Assembly (NCBI RefSeq): GCF_013004595.1
Contig: NZ_JABEMC010000009.1
Coordinates: 62,001-97,651 of the forward strand
DNA from: Brevibacterium luteolum
Lineage (GTDB): Bacteria > Actinomycetota > Actinomycetes > Actinomycetales > Brevibacteriaceae
Reading direction: 5' to 3'
Length of the DNA: 35,651 bases
Part shown: one piece after another, positions 4,401 to 35,530 of the stretch
Layout of the letters: each line of letters starts with the position of its first letter
Numbering within the stretch: the first letter of the stretch is position 1
Made by a program: the position numbers and the translations under genes
The notes under the pieces: generated by a model
Databases searched by the model: none
Told to the model about the DNA's origin: nothing
The model's input: the letters and a program-made list of their open reading frames with translations, nothing else

Positions 4401-5906
4401 ATGTCCCGTATCACATGCCCCATTCTGGCCCAGCGGGTGACGAGCGCTGACGAGGCCGCGACCCACATCAGCAACGGCGACAACGTCGCCATGAGCGGCT
4501 TCACCGGCTCCGGCTATCCCAAAGCCGTCCCCGGTGCACTCGCCGAGCAGATCGCGAAAGCGCACGCCGCCGGCGACGAGTTCAGCATCGGGTTGCTCAC
4601 CGGCGCCTCGACCGCACATGAGCTCGACGGAGTGCTCGCCGAGTCCAAGGGCGTGCATCTGCGGGCGCCGTTCAACACGGATCCGGACATGCGCGCAGGC
4701 ATCAATTCCGGAGAGGTCGAATACGTCGACACCCACCTGAGCCACCTGGCCCAGCAGGTGTGGTTCGGCTTCTACGGCAACCTCGATGTTGCCGTTGTCG
4801 AGGTCGCGGCGGCGCTGCCCAACGGGCTGCTCGTGCCGTCCTCTTCGGTCGGAAATGACAAGACCTGGCTCGACCTGGCCGACAAGGTCATCATCGAAGT
4901 CAACTCCTGGCACCCGCGGGCCTTCGAAGGCTTCCACGACGTCTACTACGGCACCAAGCTGCCCCCGCACCGCAACCCGATCCAGATCCTGGAGCCCACC
5001 CAGCGCATCGGCGATCCGTACCTGCGCGTCGACCCGGACAAGGTCGTCGCCGTCGTCGAGACCAATGCTCCGGACCGCGACAACACCTTCGCCCCGGTCG
5101 ATGCGAAGTCCGAGGCAATGGCCGGGTACCTCATCGACTTCCTGCGCCACGAGGTCAAGGCTGGGCGGATGCCGAAGAATCTGCTGCCGCTCCAGTCCGG
5201 TGTCGGCAACGTCGCCAACGCCGTGCTCGAAGGCCTGGCCGACTCCGAGTTCGAGCAACTCCACTCCTACACCGAGGTGATGCAGGACAACCTGCTCAAA
5301 CTCATCGACACCGGGAAGATGGATTCGGTTTCGGCGACCGCATTCAGCCTCTCGCGCGAGGTAGCTGAGAAGTTCAACGCCAACGCTGAGTCGTACAAGG
5401 GCAAGATCCTGCTGCGCACCCAGGAGATGTCGAACCATCCGGAGATCATCCGCCGGCTTGGGGTCATCGCGATCAACGGGATGGTCGAAGCCGACATCTA
5501 CGGCAACGTCAACTCCACCCATGTGCTCGGCGCGAAGATGATCAACGGCATCGGCGGCTCCGGCGACTTCGCCCGCAACGCCTTCCTCAACTTCTTCGTC
5601 TCACCCTCGACCGCCAAGGACGGGGCGATCTCGTCGATTGTGCCGATGGCCTCGCATGTCGATCACACCGAGCACGACGTCCACGTCGTCATCACCGAGA
5701 ACGGCATCGCCGATCTGCGCGGGGCCGCCCCGCGCCGGCGTGCGAAGAGGATCATCGACAACTGCGCCCACCCGGACTACCGCGAGCGCCTGCACGACTA
5801 CCTCGACCGCGCCTGGGCCGCCTCCGAGGGGGCCCGCCACACCCCGCACCTGCTCGATGAGGCGCTGAGCTGGCACCGAAGTCTGCGCGACACCGGCCGC
5901 ATGTGA
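4401..5906 (+). CDS. Acetyl-CoA hydrolase / succinate:acetate CoA-transferase
   Basis: SGFTGSGYPKAVP, LQSGVGN, YTEV, EADIYGNVNSTH, NGIGGSGDFARNA, SHVDHTEHDV. Confidence 0.92.
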   Translation: MSRITCPILAQRVTSADEAATHISNGDNVAMSGFTGSGYPKAVPGALAEQIAKAHAAGDEFSIGLLTGASTAHELDGVLAESKGVHLRAPFNTDPDMRAGINSGEVEYVDTHLSHLAQQVWFGFYGNLDVAVVEVAAALPNGLLVPSSSVGNDKTWLDLADKVIIEVNSWHPRAFEGFHDVYYGTKLPPHRNPIQILEPTQRIGDPYLRVDPDKVVAVVETNAPDRDNTFAPVDAKSEAMAGYLIDFLRHEVKAGRMPKNLLPLQSGVGNVANAVLEGLADSEFEQLHSYTEVMQDNLLKLIDTGKMDSVSATAFSLSREVAEKFNANAESYKGKILLRTQEMSNHPEIIRRLGVIAINGMVEADIYGNVNSTHVLGAKMINGIGGSGDFARNAFLNFFVSPSTAKDGAISSIVPMASHVDHTEHDVHVVITENGIADLRGAAPRRRAKRIIDNCAHPDYRERLHDYLDRAWAASEGARHTPHLLDEALSWHRSLRDTGRM

Positions 5907-5909
5907 GGC

Positions 5910-5951
5910 GACCGGTGCCTCGGGAGCGGTGACCGGCGCCTCGGGAGCGGT
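5910..5951. repeat. 2 x 21-bp tandem repeat carrying the dispersed GCCTCGGGAGCGGT motif
   Basis: GACCGGTGCCTCGGGAGCGGT followed by GACCGGCGCCTCGGGAGCGGT. Confidence 0.85.
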
Positions 5952-6067
5952 TGTGCCAGTCTCGACACACAGCCGGGCAGCGGCGTGGAATCGGCTCACG
6001 GCTCGGTTACGATCGAAGCGACAATGAGCCGCCCGGCTCAACCCCGCCGATTTCGCAGGGAGGGACC

Positions 6068-18664: not shown

Positions 18665-20071
18665 CTAGGCGATCCGGGTGCTGCGGCGGCGGTGCTCGGA
18701 TCGGTTTGCCAGCAGCTGCACACCGCCCAGACAGACGAGCAGCGCGGTGGCGACGGTGATCATGTGGAAGCCCTCCACGTAGCTGAACCGGTCGATGATG
18801 ACGCCGGTGAGCGCTGAGGAGCCGGACTGGCCGACGACGACGCCGGTCGACATCATCGCCATGACGGTGGTGGTGCGGCCGAAGGGGGCGACGTCGGAGG
18901 CGATCGAGTACAGGGTCACGAGTGCCGGGCCGATGCCGCAGCCCATGATGACCAGCGGCAGCACCACGTCGAGCGGGTCGGAGACGAAGTGCATGACGAT
19001 CGAGCCGGCCAGGGCAAGCGAGCCGAAGACGAGCCAGCGGGCGGTGAAGGTGAAGCGCTCGGGCAGCAGGACGACCGACAGTGCGAGGATCGCTGAGCCA
19101 ACGCCCATGATGCCGTAGTAGATGCCAGCGGCATCGGCCTGGCCGAAACGCTCCATGAAATTGCTCAGGGAGGTGAGCGAGGCGCCGAAGAACACGCCGA
19201 TGCTCGTCATGCCGAGCACCGGGACGAGGACGATGAGGCGGTAGATCTCGCGCACCGGGGCCGGGCGTGTCGGCTCGGCGGGTGCAGGCTGGGCGGCGGG
19301 TGCAGGCTGGGCGGTTTCGGGCAGCGGGCCGGCTGCGGCGCACGTCGGGGAGGCGCCTTCCGGCTGGGAGGCGCGTTCCAACTGGGGGGCGTCTTCCGGC
19401 TGGGAGGTGCCGGCCGCCTCGGGAGCGGAGGCCGCCTCGGGGGCAGACGCGGGCTGGCGGGCGTGGCCGGTGGTGAAGCGCACCGAGGGGTGGACGGCGA
19501 AGGCGAGGACACCGAGGCCGGTGAGCACGGCGGCGAAGTCGAGCGGGACGACGACGCCCAAGGCTACGGCGACGATGCCGACGATGACCGGGCCGAAGAC
19601 GAAGACGAGCTCATCGGTCATCGACTCATACGACAGCACCTTCGAGGTGACCTTGCGGGCATCGGTGCCGGTGAGCGTGGCGCGGATGGCGTAGAGCCAG
19701 CGGGTGCGCACCATCGACGAGGCCTGCGGGCTGGTGAGGCCGATCGCCATGCCGGCGGCGAGCACAACCGGGGTGGTGACCTCCAGCCGGAGGGCGACGG
19801 CGAGGCCGAAGAGAGCGGCGGCGTTGGCGAGCGCGGTGATGATGAGGACGATGCGCTGGCCCCAGCGGTCGGCAGCCGCGCCGATGAGCGGGCCGGAGAT
19901 CGCAGTGCCGAGGCCGACGAGCGCGGCGGTCGAGCCGGCCAGGGTGTAGCTCTCGCGGGTGGCGGCGACGGCTGTGAGCACGGCGACGACCGACATCGCG
20001 AAGGGCAGCTTGGCGATGACGGAGATCGGGATGTAGGTCCAGCCGAACAGGCGCATGAGAACCGAGAGCAC
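18665..20071 (-). CDS. MFS transporter with a Pro/Ala-rich central loop
   Basis: GAAADRWGQR (motif A), YESMTDELVFVFGP, about 12 TM segments. Same subfamily as 9436-10698. Confidence 0.88.
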   Translation of the reverse strand: MLSVLMRLFGWTYIPISVIAKLPFAMSVVAVLTAVAATRESYTLAGSTAALVGLGTAISGPLIGAAADRWGQRIVLIITALANAAALFGLAVALRLEVTTPVVLAAGMAIGLTSPQASSMVRTRWLYAIRATLTGTDARKVTSKVLSYESMTDELVFVFGPVIVGIVAVALGVVVPLDFAAVLTGLGVLAFAVHPSVRFTTGHARQPASAPEAASAPEAAGTSQPEDAPQLERASQPEGASPTCAAAGPLPETAQPAPAAQPAPAEPTRPAPVREIYRLIVLVPVLGMTSIGVFFGASLTSLSNFMERFGQADAAGIYYGIMGVGSAILALSVVLLPERFTFTARWLVFGSLALAGSIVMHFVSDPLDVVLPLVIMGCGIGPALVTLYSIASDVAPFGRTTTVMAMMSTGVVVGQSGSSALTGVIIDRFSYVEGFHMITVATALLVCLGGVQLLANRSEHRRRSTRIA

Positions 20072-21646: not shown

Positions 21647-22525
21647 ATGGTCGACTCGCAGCACTTCACCGACGCCGCCGCTGACTACTCCCGCCTCGCT
21701 CCGCACCTGTGGGATCGCATCGGCGCAGATGCCGTCGCGGCGGCAGGCCCCCAACCCGGTGAGCGGGTTCTCGACGCGTGCTCCGGGATCGGCTCCTCAG
21801 CGCTGCCGGCCGCTGCTGCGGTCGGGGCCGATGGACGCGTCGACGCCGTCGACCTCGCGGGCGGTCTGCTCGATGTGCTGCACCAGCAGGCGAGCAAGCG
21901 TGGGCTGGGACAGGTGCGTGCACACCAAGCGGACGTGCTGGACTTCGGGCAACCAGGTGAGTACGACCTTGTGCAGTGCGTCCTCGGAATCATGTTCTTC
22001 CCGGACTTCACAGCTGGGTCGCGCCAGCTGGTCAACCGGCTGCGGCCAGGCGGGCGGCTGATGCTGTCTGTCTGGGATCACGGGGTCATGGCCGACATCG
22101 GAATGCGGGCCTTCAATTCGATCCAGCGGGTGAGAAACGAGAAGCGGCCCGACCCTGCCTACGCGAAATCTGCCCGAGAGGATGAGAGGCACGGCGGTGA
22201 CGGCACCGCCGCCCACGCAGACGACGCCGGCAACGAGGCCGGACTCAGCTTCGACCAGATCGACACCCAGGACGCCTTCGGACCGTGGATGGAAGGGCTC
22301 GGCCTGATCGACGTGACCGTCACCGTGCAGGAACGGAACCTGGAGCTCGACGACGATCTCGCCTGGCTGGTGATCACCGGTTCAGGATTCCGCAGCATGT
22401 TCTCCGGGATGACCGCCGAGCAGATCGAGAAGGTCCGGTTGGACTTCCTCGCGGGCCTCCACCGCGATGGATTCACCTCGCTCAACACGAGCACACTCGT
22501 CGGAATCGGGCACCGGCCGGAGTAG
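21647..22525 (+). CDS. Class I SAM-dependent methyltransferase
   Basis: VLDACSGIG (motif I), VDLA, YDLVQCVLGIMFFPD, LRPGG. TACAGT lies 6 nt before the ATG. Confidence 0.88.
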   Translation: MVDSQHFTDAAADYSRLAPHLWDRIGADAVAAAGPQPGERVLDACSGIGSSALPAAAAVGADGRVDAVDLAGGLLDVLHQQASKRGLGQVRAHQADVLDFGQPGEYDLVQCVLGIMFFPDFTAGSRQLVNRLRPGGRLMLSVWDHGVMADIGMRAFNSIQRVRNEKRPDPAYAKSAREDERHGGDGTAAHADDAGNEAGLSFDQIDTQDAFGPWMEGLGLIDVTVTVQERNLELDDDLAWLVITGSGFRSMFSGMTAEQIEKVRLDFLAGLHRDGFTSLNTSTLVGIGHRPE

Positions 22526-22539
22526 ATTCTCCCGGTGTG

Positions 22540-22647
22540 CGTTGAGTACCACATCAACGTTCGTCGAAGTGGTACTCAATGCCCATGAATCCGGCGAAAC
22601 ATAGTCGTTGAGTACCACATCGAGTGGACTCGATGTGGTACTCAACG
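22540..22647. repeat. Doublet of 42-bp palindromes (REP-like)
   Basis: CGTTGAGTACCACATC-N10-GA[A/T]GTGGTACTCAA[T/C]G at 22540-22581 and 22606-22647. The second copy is a perfect 20-bp stem with a GG loop. Confidence 0.9.
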
Positions 22648-22737
22648 TCAAGACTGAAACGAGGAGCCTCAGGCGCCGCCATCCACAGATTTGGCTTTCC
22701 CGTTCCAATCGCGATGGGAACCGATAAAGCTGTCCTC

Positions 22738-23709
22738 ATGAGCACGCGAAACCGCTCTCAGCGTAAGAAGAGAGCGACCCTCCCACAGTTCGCCAACTAC
22801 GACTTCCTCGTCCAGCGAAACCTCACCGGGTATCGACGGCGCCAACTCCTGTCCCGGTACGGCAAGGGCATCTACGACCACCCGGATGGGCCGGCAGATC
22901 TCGGCATCCCGGTTTGGGCCGGTGAGAACTGGCTGCGCACATTCGAAATGGCAACGGCACTGGCTGTCGTGGCACCCCACGCGGCTGTCTCTCACCGTTC
23001 TGCAGCGGATCTTCACGGCCTCCCGCTCCGAGGACGGCTCGACAAGCTGGAAGTGACAGTCGAACGGTCAGCAACGGTCATCAAGCGCCCATGGGTCAGC
23101 TGTCGTCAAGCCGAAACCGTCAACCACCTCACAGTTGCGACTTTCCGGCTGACCACCATTAGACAGACGCTTCTCGACCTCGCCGGTCAGCTCGGCTTCC
23201 TTGAACTCGTCCAGTGCTTCGACGCTGTGCTCGGTCGCTGGCATGGCCCGCCCCAGCTCACACCCGTTCAGCTGTCTCAACTCATCATCGGGACCCGACG
23301 CTATCCCGGCCGCAAGCTCGCCATCGCCGCACTCCACCGCGCCCGGCCCGGAGTCGACTCGCCGCAGGAGACCCGCGTGCGCCTCAGCCTCGTCGACGCC
23401 GGCCTGCCCGAACCCGAGGTCTCTGTCAGCGTCGAGAATCCCGCCACCGGCTATTACTTCCTGCTCGATATGGCCTACCGGCGTGAGAAGATCGCAGTCG
23501 AATACGACGGTGACCATCACCGTGACGACGAAGTCCAGTACAACCGCGACATCGCCCGACTGCAGACGCTCGAGCAGCTCGGCTGGACGGTCATCCGGGT
23601 CACTCGCCGCAGCGATATGAGCCGGGTCGTCCACGACGTTCGCGCCGCACTCATCCGCCGGCGCCAGAAGTCCCCCGCCGGCCCCGCTCAGGCGGACCGC
23701 GCCAGCTGA
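22738..23709 (+). CDS. DUF559 / Vsr-like endonuclease-domain protein (AbiEi-like N-terminal region)
   Basis: SHRSAADLHGLP, DSPQETRVRL..VDAGLPEP, DMAYRREKIAVEYDGDHH...RDIAR...LEQLGWTVIRVT. Confidence 0.85.
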   Translation: MSTRNRSQRKKRATLPQFANYDFLVQRNLTGYRRRQLLSRYGKGIYDHPDGPADLGIPVWAGENWLRTFEMATALAVVAPHAAVSHRSAADLHGLPLRGRLDKLEVTVERSATVIKRPWVSCRQAETVNHLTVATFRLTTIRQTLLDLAGQLGFLELVQCFDAVLGRWHGPPQLTPVQLSQLIIGTRRYPGRKLAIAALHRARPGVDSPQETRVRLSLVDAGLPEPEVSVSVENPATGYYFLLDMAYRREKIAVEYDGDHHRDDEVQYNRDIARLQTLEQLGWTVIRVTRRSDMSRVVHDVRAALIRRRQKSPAGPAQADRAS

Positions 23710-23801
23710 ACCCCAGCGGCCCCGACCACCTGACCGCCCGGCCACCCCGCCATCCGAATCCACCAGTGACAAGCACCCGCCCACGGAGTACTGTCACAGA
23801 T

Positions 23802-24527
23802 GTGAGCACCGACACGGCAATGCGCGCCGCAGCCTTCGCCATGGAGCACCTTGCGGAGGACATCAGCGTTGCCGACATCGCCGACCACCTCGGCTACAGT
23901 CCCTTCCACTTCAACCGCATGTTCGCCGCCGCCACGCACACCCCGCCTGGCCGGTTCCTCGCCGCGCTGCGCTTCCACGCCGCGAAAAACCTGCTGCTGA
24001 CCGGCGATGACGCCGTCGTCGACGTGTGCACGCAGGTCGGCTTCACCTCGGTGTCGTCGTTCACCCGCCGGTTCCGCGAGGCCGTCGGCACCAGCCCGGC
24101 GGCCTTCCGCACGCTCGCCGACCAGGTCGCCGACCGCTCGCCGGCCCCGTTCTCCATCGGCGACCCGAAGGCCGCGCACGTCACCATCGACATCGAGAGC
24201 CCGCCGTCCGGGCTGCGCCTGCCGCCGCTCATGTGGATCGGCTGGTTCCCAAAGCCCGCACCCATCGGGCTGCCGCTGGCCGGTGTGCTGTGCCGCGGTC
24301 AGCAGCGCATCCGCCTGCCGCTGTGCGCCGGCGCCCCGTGGCTACTCGGTTTCAGTGTCGATGCCGCCGCCGAGGTGGTCGACCACCTGGCACCAGCGGC
24401 TCCCGTCGTCGCCATCCACCAGCAACCGGTGACCACAGCCCAGCACATCACGCTGAGCTTCGGCCCGGCCCCGCAGCCGTCGGTCCCCATGCTGGCAGCC
24501 CTGCCGGCTCTGGCTCCATCGCACTGA
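23802..24527 (+). CDS. AraC-family regulator with N-terminal HTH
   Basis: DIADHLGYSPFHFNRMF and VCTQVGFTSVSSFTRRFREAVGTSP. TACTGT lies 7 nt before the GTG at 23802. Confidence 0.88.
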   Translation: MSTDTAMRAAAFAMEHLAEDISVADIADHLGYSPFHFNRMFAAATHTPPGRFLAALRFHAAKNLLLTGDDAVVDVCTQVGFTSVSSFTRRFREAVGTSPAAFRTLADQVADRSPAPFSIGDPKAAHVTIDIESPPSGLRLPPLMWIGWFPKPAPIGLPLAGVLCRGQQRIRLPLCAGAPWLLGFSVDAAAEVVDHLAPAAPVVAIHQQPVTTAQHITLSFGPAPQPSVPMLAALPALAPSH

Positions 24528-24639: not shown

Positions 24640-25443
24640 ATGTCACCTCAATACCGCACCGGCGCTCCCTGCTGGCTCGACCTCGGAACCCGTGACCTCA
24701 ACGGCTCCCTCGACTTCTACCGCGAGCTCTTCGGCTGGGAGTTCAACGACCTCGGCGCCGAGATGAATCACTACCACCTCATCACCGCAGATGGCAGCAC
24801 CGTCGGCGGGCTGATGGATGTCTCCGGCATGACCTGCCCGGAAGGCGGTGAGATCCCCACGCGATTCGACGTCTACCTCCACACCGACGACCTCGCCTCG
24901 ACAGTCGCGAGGGCCCGCGAGCGCGGCACCGTGTACATCGACAATGACCAGGCAGGCGATGCCGGTTCGATGTCCGTCATGGCCGACCCTTCCGGCGCGG
25001 GCCTCAACGCGTGGCAGCCGAATCAGATGACCGGCTTCGAGCTGCCGCTCACACACGGCACGCCGGTGTGGTTCGAATGCCGCAGCACCGACTTCGATGC
25101 CTCGGCTGACTTCTACCGCGAGGTCTTCGACTGGTCCGTCGTGGAGATGGACAGCGCGCCGGAGGGCACCCCGCGCTATGCCACCAACGGCTCGGTCACC
25201 GGGACGCTGCCCGACGGCACCCAGTGCGAAGCCGTCTGCGGACTCGTCGACGCCGCCGCCATGCCACCGGAGTTCCAGGAGTCGACGTGGTCGATCTTCT
25301 TCGGCACGAAGGACCTCGACGCCTCACTCGAGACCGCCAACCGCCTCGGTGCCACCACCGGCGAGGTCGGCCAGTCGCCGTTCGGCCGCTTCTGCCAGGT
25401 CACCGACCCGCAGGGTGCCGCCTTCATGCTCAACGAACTGTGA
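24640..25443 (+). CDS. Two-domain VOC/glyoxalase family protein (Rv0577/Cfp30B-like)
   Basis: GAPCWLDL...FYRELFGW, ADPSGA...WQP, PVWFE...FYREVFDW, PFGR...DPQGA. Confidence 0.9.
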   Translation: MSPQYRTGAPCWLDLGTRDLNGSLDFYRELFGWEFNDLGAEMNHYHLITADGSTVGGLMDVSGMTCPEGGEIPTRFDVYLHTDDLASTVARARERGTVYIDNDQAGDAGSMSVMADPSGAGLNAWQPNQMTGFELPLTHGTPVWFECRSTDFDASADFYREVFDWSVVEMDSAPEGTPRYATNGSVTGTLPDGTQCEAVCGLVDAAAMPPEFQESTWSIFFGTKDLDASLETANRLGATTGEVGQSPFGRFCQVTDPQGAAFMLNEL

Positions 25444-25964: not shown

Positions 25965-25975
25965 AAGGACTGTCC

Positions 25976-26775
25976 ATGACTGCTGATTTCCGATCCGGTG
26001 CACCCTGTTGGCTCGACCTCGGCTCACCGGACCCCGACCGCTCGCAGGATACTACCACCGTCTCTTCGGCTGGGAGTTCGCGGCTCCAGCCGGGCCGGAT
26101 GAGTTCTCCACCATCACCTCTGCTGGCCACACCGTCGGCGGTTTCGTCGGCACCCGCGGGATGACCGATCCAGCCGGCCAGCCATGGCCGAGCAGCTTCG
26201 GGGTGTATCTGCGCTCCGACGACCTCACGCGCACCGCCGAGCGCGCCCGGGCTGCCGGCACACAGCCGCACGAAGCTCCGAGCCCAGTCAAGACCGGCGC
26301 GCTCATCTTCGTCGACGATCCCGGCGGCGCGACAGTCAACGTATGGCAGCCGGGCACCATCACCGGATTCGACCTGCCGCATGCGCCCGGCACCCCGGCA
26401 TGGTTCGAGTGCCGCAGCACCGCCTTCGACGCCGCCGCAGAGTTCTACCGCGATGTCTTCGACTGGGCGCTCGTCGATCGCACCGGCACCGTCCATGACG
26501 GTACCCGGTATGTCACCAACGGCTCACCGACCGGAACCTTGGACGACGGCACACCCTGTCCGGTGGTGTGCGGGCTCGCCGATGCCGCGACGATGCCGGA
26601 CCCTGAGCAGTCCTCCCGCTGGCTCATCTACTTCCACACCCCGGAGGTCGCCGCCGGCTGCGAGGCAGCCGAGCGCCTCGGCGCCACAATCGGATCGACC
26701 GGCCGCACGCCGTTCGGGGTGTTCGCCCCTGTCACCGACCCGTGTGGGGCGGAGTTCGTACTCAACGGGCAGTGA
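25976..26775 (+). pseudogene. Second two-domain VOC paralog, frameshifted near 26050
   Basis: ATG at 25976 (after GAAAGGA) gives MTADFRSGAPCWLDLGSPDPDRSQD. The continuation YYHRLFGW... is in another frame, and the 800-nt span is not divisible by 3. Confidence 0.8.
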
Positions 26776-26831
26776 CCGGCCGCCTCGGCTTCGGTACCGT
26801 TCCCGAGGCGGTGGTCGCCTCCCCACTCAGC

Positions 26832-32389: not shown

Positions 32390-32961
32390 GACCTGCCCGC
32401 CGCGAAGTGCTCACGCTGCCCAACGTCATCTCGGTCATCCGGCTGGTGGTGCTCGTACCGATCGTCATCTGGCTCATGCGCGAACCCGACGACCGGATCC
32501 TCGCGACGATCGCGCTGGCGATGTTCGGGGCAACGGACTGGATCGACGGATTCATCGCCCGCCGCTGGAACATGGCCTCCCGCGTCGGCGCGGTCCTCGA
32601 CCCGGTCGCCGACCGCCTGGGCATCGCGTTCATCTGCGCGGCGATGACGCTCTTCGGGATCCTGCCGGTGTGGATGCTGCTCGTCATCGTGCTCACGGAC
32701 TTCGGCCTCGGCATCGTCGGCGCGACCCGCATGCACGCCACGCAGGACTCGCACGTCACCTGGCTGGGCAAGATCCGCACCGCGCTCATCATGACCGGGC
32801 TGCCGCTGCTGCTGCTCGGCAGCGCCCCGACGCTGGCCGCCACCCCGATCGAGACGATCGCGCTCGGGCTGCTGAGCACCGGCGTCATCCTCCACCTCGC
32901 CGCCGGCATCCACTACGCACTCATGCTCATCCGGATCGGTCGGCAGCGTCCCGCGGTCTGA
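32386..32961 (+). CDS. CDP-alcohol phosphatidyltransferase (PgsA-like)
   Basis: TLPNVISVIR and the family signature DWIDGFIARRWNMASRVGAVLDPVAD. ATGA overlap with the upstream gene. Confidence 0.9.
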   Translation: MRPARREVLTLPNVISVIRLVVLVPIVIWLMREPDDRILATIALAMFGATDWIDGFIARRWNMASRVGAVLDPVADRLGIAFICAAMTLFGILPVWMLLVIVLTDFGLGIVGATRMHATQDSHVTWLGKIRTALIMTGLPLLLLGSAPTLAATPIETIALGLLSTGVILHLAAGIHYALMLIRIGRQRPAV

Positions 32962-33027
32962 GTTCCGGGCCCGAGGCGGTGGGCACCGCTCCCGAGGCGG
33001 TTGCCGGGTACGTGTCCTGACAGCAGA

Positions 33028-33129: not shown

Positions 33130-35530
33130 TCAGGTCAGGTTCGTCCTGCGCCGGGCGAGGACGAAGACTCCGGCGCCGAGTGCGACGAGTCCGCCGCCAG
33201 CGGCGAGCGCCCAGGTGATGTCGCTGCCGGTGCGCGGCAGCTCACGGCCGTCGGAGTCGCGGTTGCGGTCCTCGCGCGTGCCGTCACCCTCCCGGTCACC
33301 GCCGCCCTGGCCGTCATCGTCGCGGCCGTCATCGTCCCGGCCGTCGTCTGATCCGTCGTCATCGCCATCATCTGCTGCGACGACGGTGAACCGGCCGGTC
33401 AGATCGTCTCCGCCTGCGCAGCGGACGGTGACGTCGTAGCTGCCGACGTAGGCCTCCGGGGCCTCGGCGTTCTCGCCGTAGACGGTGAACGCTGCCGCGC
33501 CGGTCTCGTCGGCGGTCGCCGTGTCGGTGAACGCGGTGACGCCCGAGCCCTCCGGTTCGACGGTGACGGTTGCGGTGCTGCCCGGTGTGCAGCCGCGGGC
33601 GACGATCTCGACGGCACCGTCGGTGACGAAGTCGGCGGCGGTGATCGTCTCAGGGGTGACGGTCAGTTCGCGCACGCTGTCAGTCGGGTCCTCGGTCGGG
33701 TCGGTGGGATCTTCGCTCGGGTCACTCGGGTCATCCGAGGGGCCCGTCGGGTCGTCCGTCGGCTTCTCGGTGGGGTCGTCCGTCGGCTCACCGGTGGGAT
33801 CGTCCGTCGGCTCACCGGTGGGATCGTCCGTCGGCTTCTCGGTCGGATCGTCGCCGGCGGCCACGGTGATCGTGCGGGTGGCTGTGGCCTCATTGCCCGA
33901 GGAGTCGGTGACCGTGTAGGTCAGCTCGTAGTCGCCCGGGGTCGAGGTGTCGACGTCACCGGTGACGGTGATGTCGCCGGCGGTGACGTCGCTGCAGGCG
34001 TCGGAGACTTCGACACCGGCCATCGGATCGAAGTCGGCGCCGAGGCGGACGGTCGTGTCGCCCGGGTGGGTGATCGTCGGAGCTGACTTGTCCTTGACGA
34101 GTTCGACCTTGTCGACCTGGTCGCCGGTGTGCGTCATCGTCGTCGAGGTGATCGAGCATTCCTTGACGTCGACGTTGGTGAACTGCGGGGTGTAGTTCTG
34201 GCTGTTCGTGTACTTCCACGGCACCAGTCCGTCCGGCACGAGCTCGTAGTACTTCGACCCGGAGGAGGAGTTCGCGGTGATATAGATGACCTGGCCGTCC
34301 TTCGGATAGACGACGTCGTGGCCGTCGTCCGGGTTGGTGTCCGGGGTAGCCGCGTAGCCGGCACCCTCAGCACCTGCCCCGTCGCCTTCGGGCAGCACCG
34401 GTGTGGTGCCGTCCATGAGGTGGGTGCGGGTGTAGCTGTGGTCGTGTCCGGCGAGCACGAGGTCGATGTCGAGGTCCTTGACGATTGGGGCGATGCCCTC
34501 GCGCAGACCCTTGGTCGTCAGCGACTGCGAGTGGGTTGCACCGGAGGAGAAGATCGAGCGGTGGAACGTCAGCACCGTCCAGTGGGTGTCGTGGGACTGC
34601 TCGGCGATGATCTGCTCGAGGTAGGCGCGGTAGTCGTCGTAGCGGCCGCGGTCCTCGGTGCTGATGTTGAGGTGCAGGACGCCGTTGTACTTGAACCAGT
34701 AGGTGCCCTTGCTCGGGTCGCCGTCCCACATGTTCGGCTGGTGGAAGTGCTGGCCGTAGAGTTCCTGGATCTTCGTGCGGTTGTAGTCGTGGTTGCCCAG
34801 GGTCTGTGCTGAGGCCTGGGTGCGCATCTGCTTCGGATCCAGGTAGGCGCGGTATTCGCCTGCGTCACCGGCGTAGGTCTGCACCTGGTCGCCAGCGGAG
34901 TACATGAACTGGGCGTTCGGGTACATCTCGTTGGCGGCATCGAGGGTGGCCTGCCAGCCGGCGCGGTCCTTCTCGACGTTGCCCGAGGCGCCGATCTGGG
35001 CGTCGCCCATGAACGTGAACTCGTGTTCAAGCGTGTCCTCGTAGACGCGGAACTGCTCGATGTCGGTCCAGCCGCCGGCCTCGGAGCCCACCCGGTAGGA
35101 GTAGGTGCCCGGCTTGAGCCCGGTCAGGGTGGCGTGGACGTACTCCTCACCGGCGACTGCGCTGGTGCCGCGGGTGACCGGGGCGACGGTCTGCGCGTCG
35201 GCGGGCATCTCGGTGTGCTCACCCGGCGCGAACTGCACGGACTCATCGACACCGGAGGTGGTGAACCAGGAGATGTAGCGTTCGCTGGGGTCGGAGCCGA
35301 TGCCCAGCAGCAGCGAGTGGTGCACCGGCTTCTCCTCCGGTGCGCTCAGGCTCAGGTCGGCGACGTCGAGGTAGATGTCGGAGCTGGTGGCCCGGCCCTG
35401 GTGGAGCTGGACGGCGATGGTGTTCTCACCGGCGGTGAGCACATCGGCGTCGACGTCGATGCGGCCGGTCTTCGGCGCCGAGGAGTTCGAGCCGCCGTAG
35501 ACGAGGTTGCGCCCCTCGCCGTCGGCTAGG
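33130..35530 (-). pseudogene. Sortase-anchored purple-acid-phosphatase-like metallophosphoesterase (FN3, Ig-like domain, PTDD linker, LPxTG), interrupted by an IS
   Basis: GDAQ, AGDQV, GNHD, FH and GHDH metallophosphoesterase motifs; YTVTDSSGN Ig-like domain; LPRTG, TM and RRR tail. The frame stays open and protein-like (LADGEGRNLVYGGSNSSAPK...) up to the CTAG at 35526-35529, with no signal peptide inside the window. Confidence 0.85.
33690..33850 (-). repeat. Coding tandem repeats (24-bp units; PTDDPTGE/PTDDPTEK linker)
   Basis: Repeated GTCCGTCGGCT...GTGGG units translate to DDPTEKPTDDPTGEPTDDPTGEPT. Confidence 0.85.

Follow-up and report, generated by a model that had tools for sequence, protein, structure and literature searches.

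A palindrome doublet in Brevibacterium luteolum lies just upstream of a gene for an AbiEi-fold/Vsr-like (DUF559) nuclease and has relatives elsewhere in the genome. We favour, with a probability of roughly 0.55, the reading that this locus is the 'master' site of a REPIN/RAYT-like partnership between repeat and enzyme that uses an unrelated nuclease. The layout of the locus, the dispersal, turnover and lineage specificity of the repeats, their co-variation with the protein and the fold of the protein emerge from comparison; binding, cutting and spreading by the nuclease are what we infer. An initial annotation of the window (the whole stretch of 35,651 nucleotides analysed, to which unprefixed coordinates refer) had proposed that a nuclease fills the role of a RAYT here. 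That proposal is strengthened by the enrichment of palindromes beside homologs, their dispersal in their own genomes, the separate repeat family of a second paralog and the lack of a RAYT in the genus, and is weakened by a gene that is syntenic and has no empty site.

Architecture of the doublet

The doublet consists of two 42-bp hairpins with a period of 66 bp, the last base lying 90 bp upstream of the ATG at 22738, at the coordinates given in the initial annotation (Table 1). The 16-bp arms described there are present, except that the right arm of hairpin 1 has two mismatches to them; the 10-nt spacers pair with themselves as well. Within the 24-bp linker there is one more stem, a short one. 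The linker stem and the extension of the arms together define a unit of four ~22-bp half-sites in alternating orientation, spaced 10 and 12 bp apart in the doublet.

Table 1. Features of the nuclease locus, in window coordinates
Feature	Position	Strand	Description or basis
Upstream neighbour, SAM methyltransferase (outside the system)	21647..22525	+	Methyltransf_25/UbiE types only
Hairpin 1 of doublet (family 1)	22540..22581	.	Imperfect, 34/42 positions self-complementary
Linker, 24 bp	22582..22605	.	Inner arms continue into its two ends (22582-22587 and 22600-22605), which show co-variation within the family
Hairpin 2 of doublet	22606..22647	.	Near perfect, 40/42 self-complementary
TCCACA promoter motif	22682..22687	+	56 bp before ATG 22738
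AbiEi-fold/Vsr-like (DUF559, MTES_1575) nuclease gene, 323 aa	22738..23709	+	Pfam, model, homologs
Residues 1-60, rapidly diverging N-terminal segment, candidate module for repeat specificity	22738..22917	+	Sister-species identity
Residues 14-203, AbiEi antitoxin-like fold	22777..23346	+	Structure match to 6y8q
Residues 206-310, Vsr-like nuclease domain	23353..23667	+	Structure matches and conserved residues
Downstream neighbour, AraC regulator (outside the system)	23766..24527	+	

Folding of 22526-22737 gave a z-score of -6.6, equalled in 0 of 200 shuffles. In an alignment of 11 family-1 doublets, the two hairpins and the 6-bp stem of the linker between them were together 81% paired, compared with 26-40% in slid controls, and 65 cells had changed on both sides, compared with 30.5 in shuffles; these pairing figures are overstated because the structure was derived from the same related sequences. 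Five of the six linker pairs contain changes on both sides.

The hairpins could instead be structured RNA, as the initial annotation had allowed, or bidirectional terminators under selection for what they do to adjacent genes, or they could owe their spread to another agent, with the nuclease gene as a tolerant landing place. The strong folding energy would suit such roles, as would the position of most copies at the 3' ends of genes, and one weak terminator-like match was found on the minus strand, at chance level (1 found versus 1.0 in shuffles). However, mismatches in the doublets show no wobble bias (20 G-T versus 27 A-C), and Rfam returned nothing at threshold for the doublet, just miRNA/snoRNA-type matches far under their gathering scores. 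A DNA palindrome is therefore the simpler reading, and the RNA alternative gained no support. The lineage-specific pairing of repeat family with paralog and the co-variation with the N-terminus would be left unexplained by an RNA or by another driver. As to the latter, a survey confined to the Y1/RAYT transposase (Y1_Tnp, PF01797) was negative in all 69 Brevibacterium genomes, with a control search positive in 6 of 14. We regard this group of explanations as quite improbable.

The nuclease and its domains

The longest open reading frame starts at a GTG (22624) within hairpin 2; this start is not conserved, and the conserved start is the ATG. Pfam DUF559 matches the C-terminal third of the 323-aa protein above its cut-off (27 bits versus 20.6) and MTES_1575 matches the same third slightly under its cut-off (E 1.4e-8); NCBIfam gave nothing over cut-off. 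A PDB sequence search yielded weak matches only (3hrl, E 0.004; 3r3p, E 0.012), and Pfam AbiEi_1 was found in just 3 of 77 homologs. In an AlphaFold2 model (77 sequences, pLDDT 93.9), residues 14-203 superimpose on AbiEi (6y8q; Z 9.0, rmsd 5.2, 162 aligned, E 4.5e-4) and on Rv2827c (Z 6.6), and residues 206-310 on 3hrl (Z 8.1, rmsd 2.5), the homing endonuclease I-Bth0305I (3r3p; Z 7.8, rmsd 2.5) and Vsr (1cw0; Z 5.5). S208, E211, R215, D244, E255, Y256, G258, D271 and R274 are invariant in the 77 homologs, and H260/H261 are nearly so; judged from the fold, the conserved residues of this domain form the putative active site.

The nearest named orthologs are those of Brevibacterium gallinarum (93%), B. 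sp. p3-SID960 (84%) and B. otitidis (74%). Values of dN/dS to three orthologs are 0.14, 0.17 and 0.35, similar to those of neighbouring genes (0.11-0.32), and indicate purifying selection on the nuclease gene in the four species where it occurs.

Two dispersed repeat families

A profile search found family 1 in this genome as nine doublets at seven sites and two half-copies; a weak match (C17:114684, E 0.002) was excluded before sites were counted. The arm is unique in the window, as the initial annotation stated, but not in the genome, where the 16-mer has four exact matches, one of them on another contig. Classified by the orientation of the flanking genes, six of nine family-1 sites are convergent, three tandem and none divergent; the convergent background is 183 of 972 gaps of at least 100 bp, delimited with a crude ORF caller (P 0.002). 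Copies of family 1 or 2 lie upstream of just 8 of 2249 called genes and on either side of 33, and at the nuclease locus itself the repeats are on one side (upstream) only. Two public DNA runs, examined as contigs, contain one more doublet, which was left out of the counts; its flanks have no match in this genome.

Turnover was followed at six family-1 sites in three sister genomes. These 18 comparisons gave 7 doublets, 5 singlets, 5 absences and 1 unclear case. Two of the singlets lack one 66-bp period, a loss that slippage between direct repeats alone can give, and the five absences fall in rewritten intergenic DNA in which no clean junction or target-site duplication was seen. Multiple copies of the doublet occur in 4 of 69 Brevibacterium genomes (a fifth has one weak 34-bp match), and a close ortholog of the nuclease is present in the same four of the 69; this co-occurrence counts once, because the four genomes form one clade and so represent one event.

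One other intact paralog, with 36% identity, is present in this genome. The 59-bp hairpin ~174-180 bp upstream of it belongs to family 2, a set of 11 AT-rich hairpins of ~64 bp with no cross-match to family 1 in the profile search. The idea that each paralog might have its own palindrome family thus holds for both intact paralogs (2/2), with families that do not cross-match. The copies of family 2 lie at G000:C1:448651-448714 and 10 more places, and two of them bracket a methyltransferase gene (G000:C17:235461-236368), which could be a case of passenger capture.

Two degenerate AbiEi-like paralogs (G000:C1:380356-381219 and G000:C16:56615-57190) have no recognisable nuclease motif, and no family hairpin was found at either, though both have the same TCCACA promoter motif (see below). 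Distant homologs resembling these degenerate paralogs occur near araC in loci L176 and L177. Brevibacterium genomes hold 1-5 paralogs each.

Hairpins beside homologs across Actinobacteria

We fetched 110 homolog loci, 97 of which had the full gene and 300 bp on either side, and scored a hairpin as present at a score of at least 13; the 97 loci are not independent, since many are from Mycobacterium and the query and three orthologs are included. The enrichment of palindromes next to DUF559 homologs on which the initial annotation turned was seen, with a hairpin beside 54 of the 97 homologs versus 6 of 100 other ORFs in these loci and, in this genome, 33 of 250 genes. Hairpins are upstream at 33 loci, downstream at 32 and on both sides at 11; the other 43 loci have none at threshold. 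Upstream and downstream flanks are alike at 47 of the 97 homologs, versus 0 of 100 ORFs, 2 of 250 genes and 15 of 600 mismatched pairs. Among the 54 loci with a hairpin, the hairpins are similar in 96-100% of pairs at protein identities above 70% and in at most 2% below 50%, a relationship expected even without function because flanking DNA shares the ancestry of the gene. A quick tree of 59 of the proteins served for display only, and no test is based on it.

Four hairpins from distant homologs, picked as strong and two-sided, were each searched in five genomes. They occur at 8, 9, ~40 and 16 places in their own genomes and in 0 of the 16 other combinations, each thus being dispersed in its own genome only. 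All 13 of the dispersed copies that were fetched have no nuclease homolog within ~1.6 kb. In locus L182 (G046:C34:11182-24730), two divergent family members lie 12 kb apart on one contig, with a strong hairpin at one only.

Co-variation of hairpin and N-terminus

At the nuclease locus the same doublet subtype is found in three species, and another subtype occupies the same place in the sister genome G057. Residues 1-60 are 93% and 83% identical to this protein where the subtype is kept and 42% identical in G057, whereas the nuclease domain keeps 89-92% identity in every sister species. At the locus of paralog 2, all four sister species have a hairpin of 59-66 bp at -242 to -167, in four different sequences; the hairpin of G072 is weak (score 12), and two of the four were missed by the family-2 profile. 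Here, residues 1-60 are 22-40% identical among the sister species and the nuclease domain 79-96%. The paralog-2 hairpin of G057 is present at 7 places in G057 and at none in five relatives. The pattern recurs in one public DNA run, where the region from the doublet to approximately codon 129 is replaced by unlike sequence (joint 22543-23124). Being linked, the hairpin and the 5' half of the gene are exchangeable as one block. The co-variation is our strongest evidence, from sequence, for an N-terminus that would read the repeat.

The same co-variation would be expected of an autoregulatory operator, another alternative of the initial annotation, in which the four AbiEi-type half-sites repress the gene, copies elsewhere are incidental or make up a small regulon, and the target of the nuclease is elsewhere, e.g. 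in foreign DNA. The N-terminal fold of AbiEi and Rv2827c points the same way: in the available part of PMC7319586, inverted repeats of 23 bp occur as two pairs within -1 to -131 of the Rv2827c promoter, and AbiEi binds two 23-bp repeats. With this fold and four half-sites like those of the Rv2827c promoter, the operator alternative is stronger than first thought, but the gene-less copies between convergent genes are left unexplained. No promoter is present at those convergent sites, and divergent genes have no family-1 site between them. Moreover, 34 bp separate the end of the doublet from the conserved TCCACA motif downstream, so that the doublet is outside the inferred core promoter; the paralog-2 hairpin is more than 100 bp away; hairpins are often downstream of homologs; and no toxin partner is present. 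An operator in this sense is improbable in our estimate, and binding of the protein at the doublet may add feedback as a side function.

Mobility of the repeats and of the gene

The nuclease gene is a free-standing ORF flanked by two intact genes, with no intron or intein. As annotated initially, no AbiEii/DUF1814 partner is beside it; the neighbours are the methyltransferase and AraC regulator genes. Its position is syntenic across four sister species, one of which (G072; L136, G072:C11) has lost 640 bp of the methyltransferase gene and retains the doublet and the nuclease gene. No empty site between the methyltransferase gene and araC, of the kind envisaged in the initial annotation, was found in related genomes. 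Unrelated genes follow the M18 peptidase at 21 other Brevibacterium loci and precede six araC homologs. The methyltransferase-nuclease-araC block is thus clade-specific in its entirety and offers no empty site for comparison. The initial annotation had held that a stably syntenic, vertically inherited gene would speak against a mobile system; synteny and purifying selection across four species go part of the way, without a clean empty site. The repeats, not the gene, thus look mobile on a short time scale, as for RAYT genes.

The 24 Brevibacterium homolog loci with full flanks fall into 14 unrelated neighbourhoods, implying that the gene has moved over long times. Recent horizontal arrival was considered and rejected: GC (65%) and GC3 (76%) are merely in the lowest 11-17% of genes, and the nuclease has no match in the phage collection. 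The plasmid database gave five weak nuclease matches, on large non-mobilisable replicons.

A promoter motif shared with competence genes

The TCCACA at 22682-22687, which we take to resemble a DnaA box, belongs to a motif found 56-60 bp before an in-frame ATG at 21 of 29 homolog loci in Brevibacterium and at 3 of 78 elsewhere; within this genome, 14 of 2244 genes have it. Here all four AbiEi-like paralogs, comEA-comEC and the Tad locus share it at 56-58 bp, a spacing also seen in 8 of 8 comEA promoters. Besides the four AbiEi-like paralogs, a set of 12 genes with the motif includes comEA (then comEC), the gene that opens the Tad ATPase locus, and SAF-domain, FtsK-type ATPase, M23 peptidase, dapA, dus and NUDIX genes. 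A sigma-70 consensus scan at the locus found no promoter, and the nuclease gene is probably leaderless. Co-expression of the nuclease gene with competence genes is suggested by the shared motif, and incoming or recombining DNA may accordingly be the substrate. TCCACA sites in this genome lie at G000:C16:94389, C1:193321, C17:66011, C18:61375 and C1:633755, and we regard TCCACA as a candidate Brevibacterium competence regulon motif.

The competence regulator of Actinomycetota is still to be found according to the available parts of PMC12849477 and PMC8467076, which mention neither DUF559 nor DnaA.

These promoters raise the alternative of a domesticated function in transformation, in which the protein would bind the palindromes as marks of 'self', or for processing, on DNA that is entering the cell or recombining (cf. 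uptake sequences and Chi sites), and the palindromes would accumulate by biased incorporation, not by selfish copying. The sharing of the motif by comEA-comEC, the Tad ATPase locus and the SAF-domain gene, its frequency at Brevibacterium homolog loci relative to all genes, the synteny and purifying selection of the gene and its near absence from mobile elements (none in phages; the weak matches on large replicons) all argue for such a role. Against it, ~10 copies per family are few for genome-wide marks, the motif in its exact spelling and spacing is rare at loci outside Brevibacterium, and the number of paralogs per genome, the at least 14 unrelated neighbourhoods and the fast change of specificity are conflict-like rather than housekeeping. 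We consider this alternative rather doubtful, and it is compatible with, not exclusive of, the REPIN/RAYT-like explanation.

Relation to known systems

The system most closely recalls REP/REPIN sequences with their RAYT (TnpA-REP) genes, the 'REPtrons' and 'TIRtrons' (PMC3116915, PMC3733652). As far as the available text of these papers goes, the two are alike in a single-copy conserved enzyme gene beside a dispersed family of extragenic palindromes, in several enzyme-family pairs per genome, in doublets that decay to singlets and in gene-less copies. They differ in the enzyme, here an AbiEi-fold/Vsr-like PD-(D/E)xK nuclease and there an HUH Y1 transposase (PF01797), and in the repeats, which here have long non-palindromic half-site arms and, in the 11-doublet alignment, no invariant GTAG (or CGTC) foot tag. 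The present system is in Actinobacteria, a group that goes unmentioned in the available text of the REP survey (PMC3733652). Lacking both the HUH enzyme and the GTAG tag, the system falls outside the REPIN/RAYT class.

The AbiE type IV toxin-antitoxin system (AbiEi, Rv2827c; PMC7319586, in the part available) shares the fold and the tandem inverted half-sites of ~22-23 bp upstream. Here, in contrast, the fold is fused to a nuclease, there is no DUF1814 toxin gene, and the repeats, which are often downstream and have copies throughout the genome, do not reach the inferred core promoter; with no toxin, the locus is not an AbiE toxin-antitoxin pair. The EDxHD homing endonuclease I-Bth0305I likewise joins a Vsr-like catalytic fold to an N-terminal DNA-binding region, a match that rests on the fold and on conserved acidic and His residues rather than on a residue-by-residue alignment of the EDxHD motif. 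According to the available text of PMC3239194, this enzyme is a dimer that cuts a pseudo-palindrome and its Vsr-like fold drives mobility, so that the fold has a precedent for selfish spread by cutting and repair. Our gene differs in having no intron or intein, an AbiEi-like rather than NUMOD N-terminus and a dispersed palindrome partner, and in its absence from the phage collection. The Vsr very-short-patch repair endonuclease, which the available text of PMC3424549 groups with DUF559, is alike in nuclease fold, but here no cytosine DNA methyltransferase is the partner (the neighbour is a small-molecule-type SAM methyltransferase), an extra 200-residue domain is present, and there are multiple fast-evolving paralogs. 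MITEs and other non-autonomous IS derivatives are also short, gene-less, palindromic, dispersed and variable in presence; they differ in that no linked DDE transposase or target-site duplication is seen here and that, at this locus, no terminal repeats enclose the gene.

PMC3424549 and PMC3710099, in the parts available, classify the nuclease fold only. In the main-text literature covered, we found no description of a palindrome family paired with an AbiEi-DUF559 nuclease. What is shown is the layout and the co-variation; the system would be categorically new if the mechanism of the nuclease were confirmed.

Proposed mechanism and significance

In the REPIN/RAYT-like reading, the AbiEi-fold domain would bind the ~22-bp arms, one protomer per arm, by analogy with AbiEi and Rv2827c on 23-bp inverted repeats, and the inverted arms would juxtapose two Vsr-type nuclease domains, as in dimeric I-Bth0305I. 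A nick or cut at or beside the palindrome would then set off repair or recombination, with repeat units copied, homogenised or lost as a result. Spreading would need host repair functions because a Vsr-type hydrolase, unlike an HUH enzyme, cannot re-join DNA itself. The gene would be switched on with the DNA-uptake machinery and would move rarely, between lineages, as a hairpin-gene(-hairpin) cassette. Tentatively, we raise as possible a more specific version, namely a second, independently evolved class of REPIN-like replicator in Actinobacteria, with a swappable AbiEi-type N-terminal module and a competence-expressed Vsr-type nuclease, in which cutting and repair during DNA uptake favour repeat-bearing alleles.

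A protein family that is very common in actinobacteria and has no assigned function hereby gains a testable job and a named DNA substrate, and the palindromic repeats of a genus without a Y1/RAYT transposase gain a candidate driver. If the enzyme does spread the repeats, the REPIN/RAYT layout would have evolved twice with unrelated chemistry. The shared promoter motif ties the nuclease family to the competence regulator sought in Actinomycetota. The pairs from sister species, with near-identical nuclease domains but different N-termini and hairpins, are ready-made material for specificity swaps. If the reading as a competence-linked replicator is true, the AbiEi-DUF559 family would be a natural library of protein-programmed nucleases, with the target written beside each gene.

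Other repeats in the window

Several further repeats were observed in the window. Downstream of araC, 24640-25443 and 25975-26775 are tandem duplicates of a glyoxalase/VOC gene with ~72% DNA identity and a spacing of 1332 bp. A 12/24-bp tandem repeat at 33743-33862 lies in a 770-aa minus-strand ORF, in a low-complexity linker. Short GC-rich repeats occur at 19348-19419, 5897-5956, 26780-26824 and 32951-32998, with an 18-bp tandem and a recurring CCCGAGGCGG-type motif. The CCCGAGGCGG-type motif is also frequent in hairpins genome-wide, and these short repeats possibly make up a third, terminator-like family.
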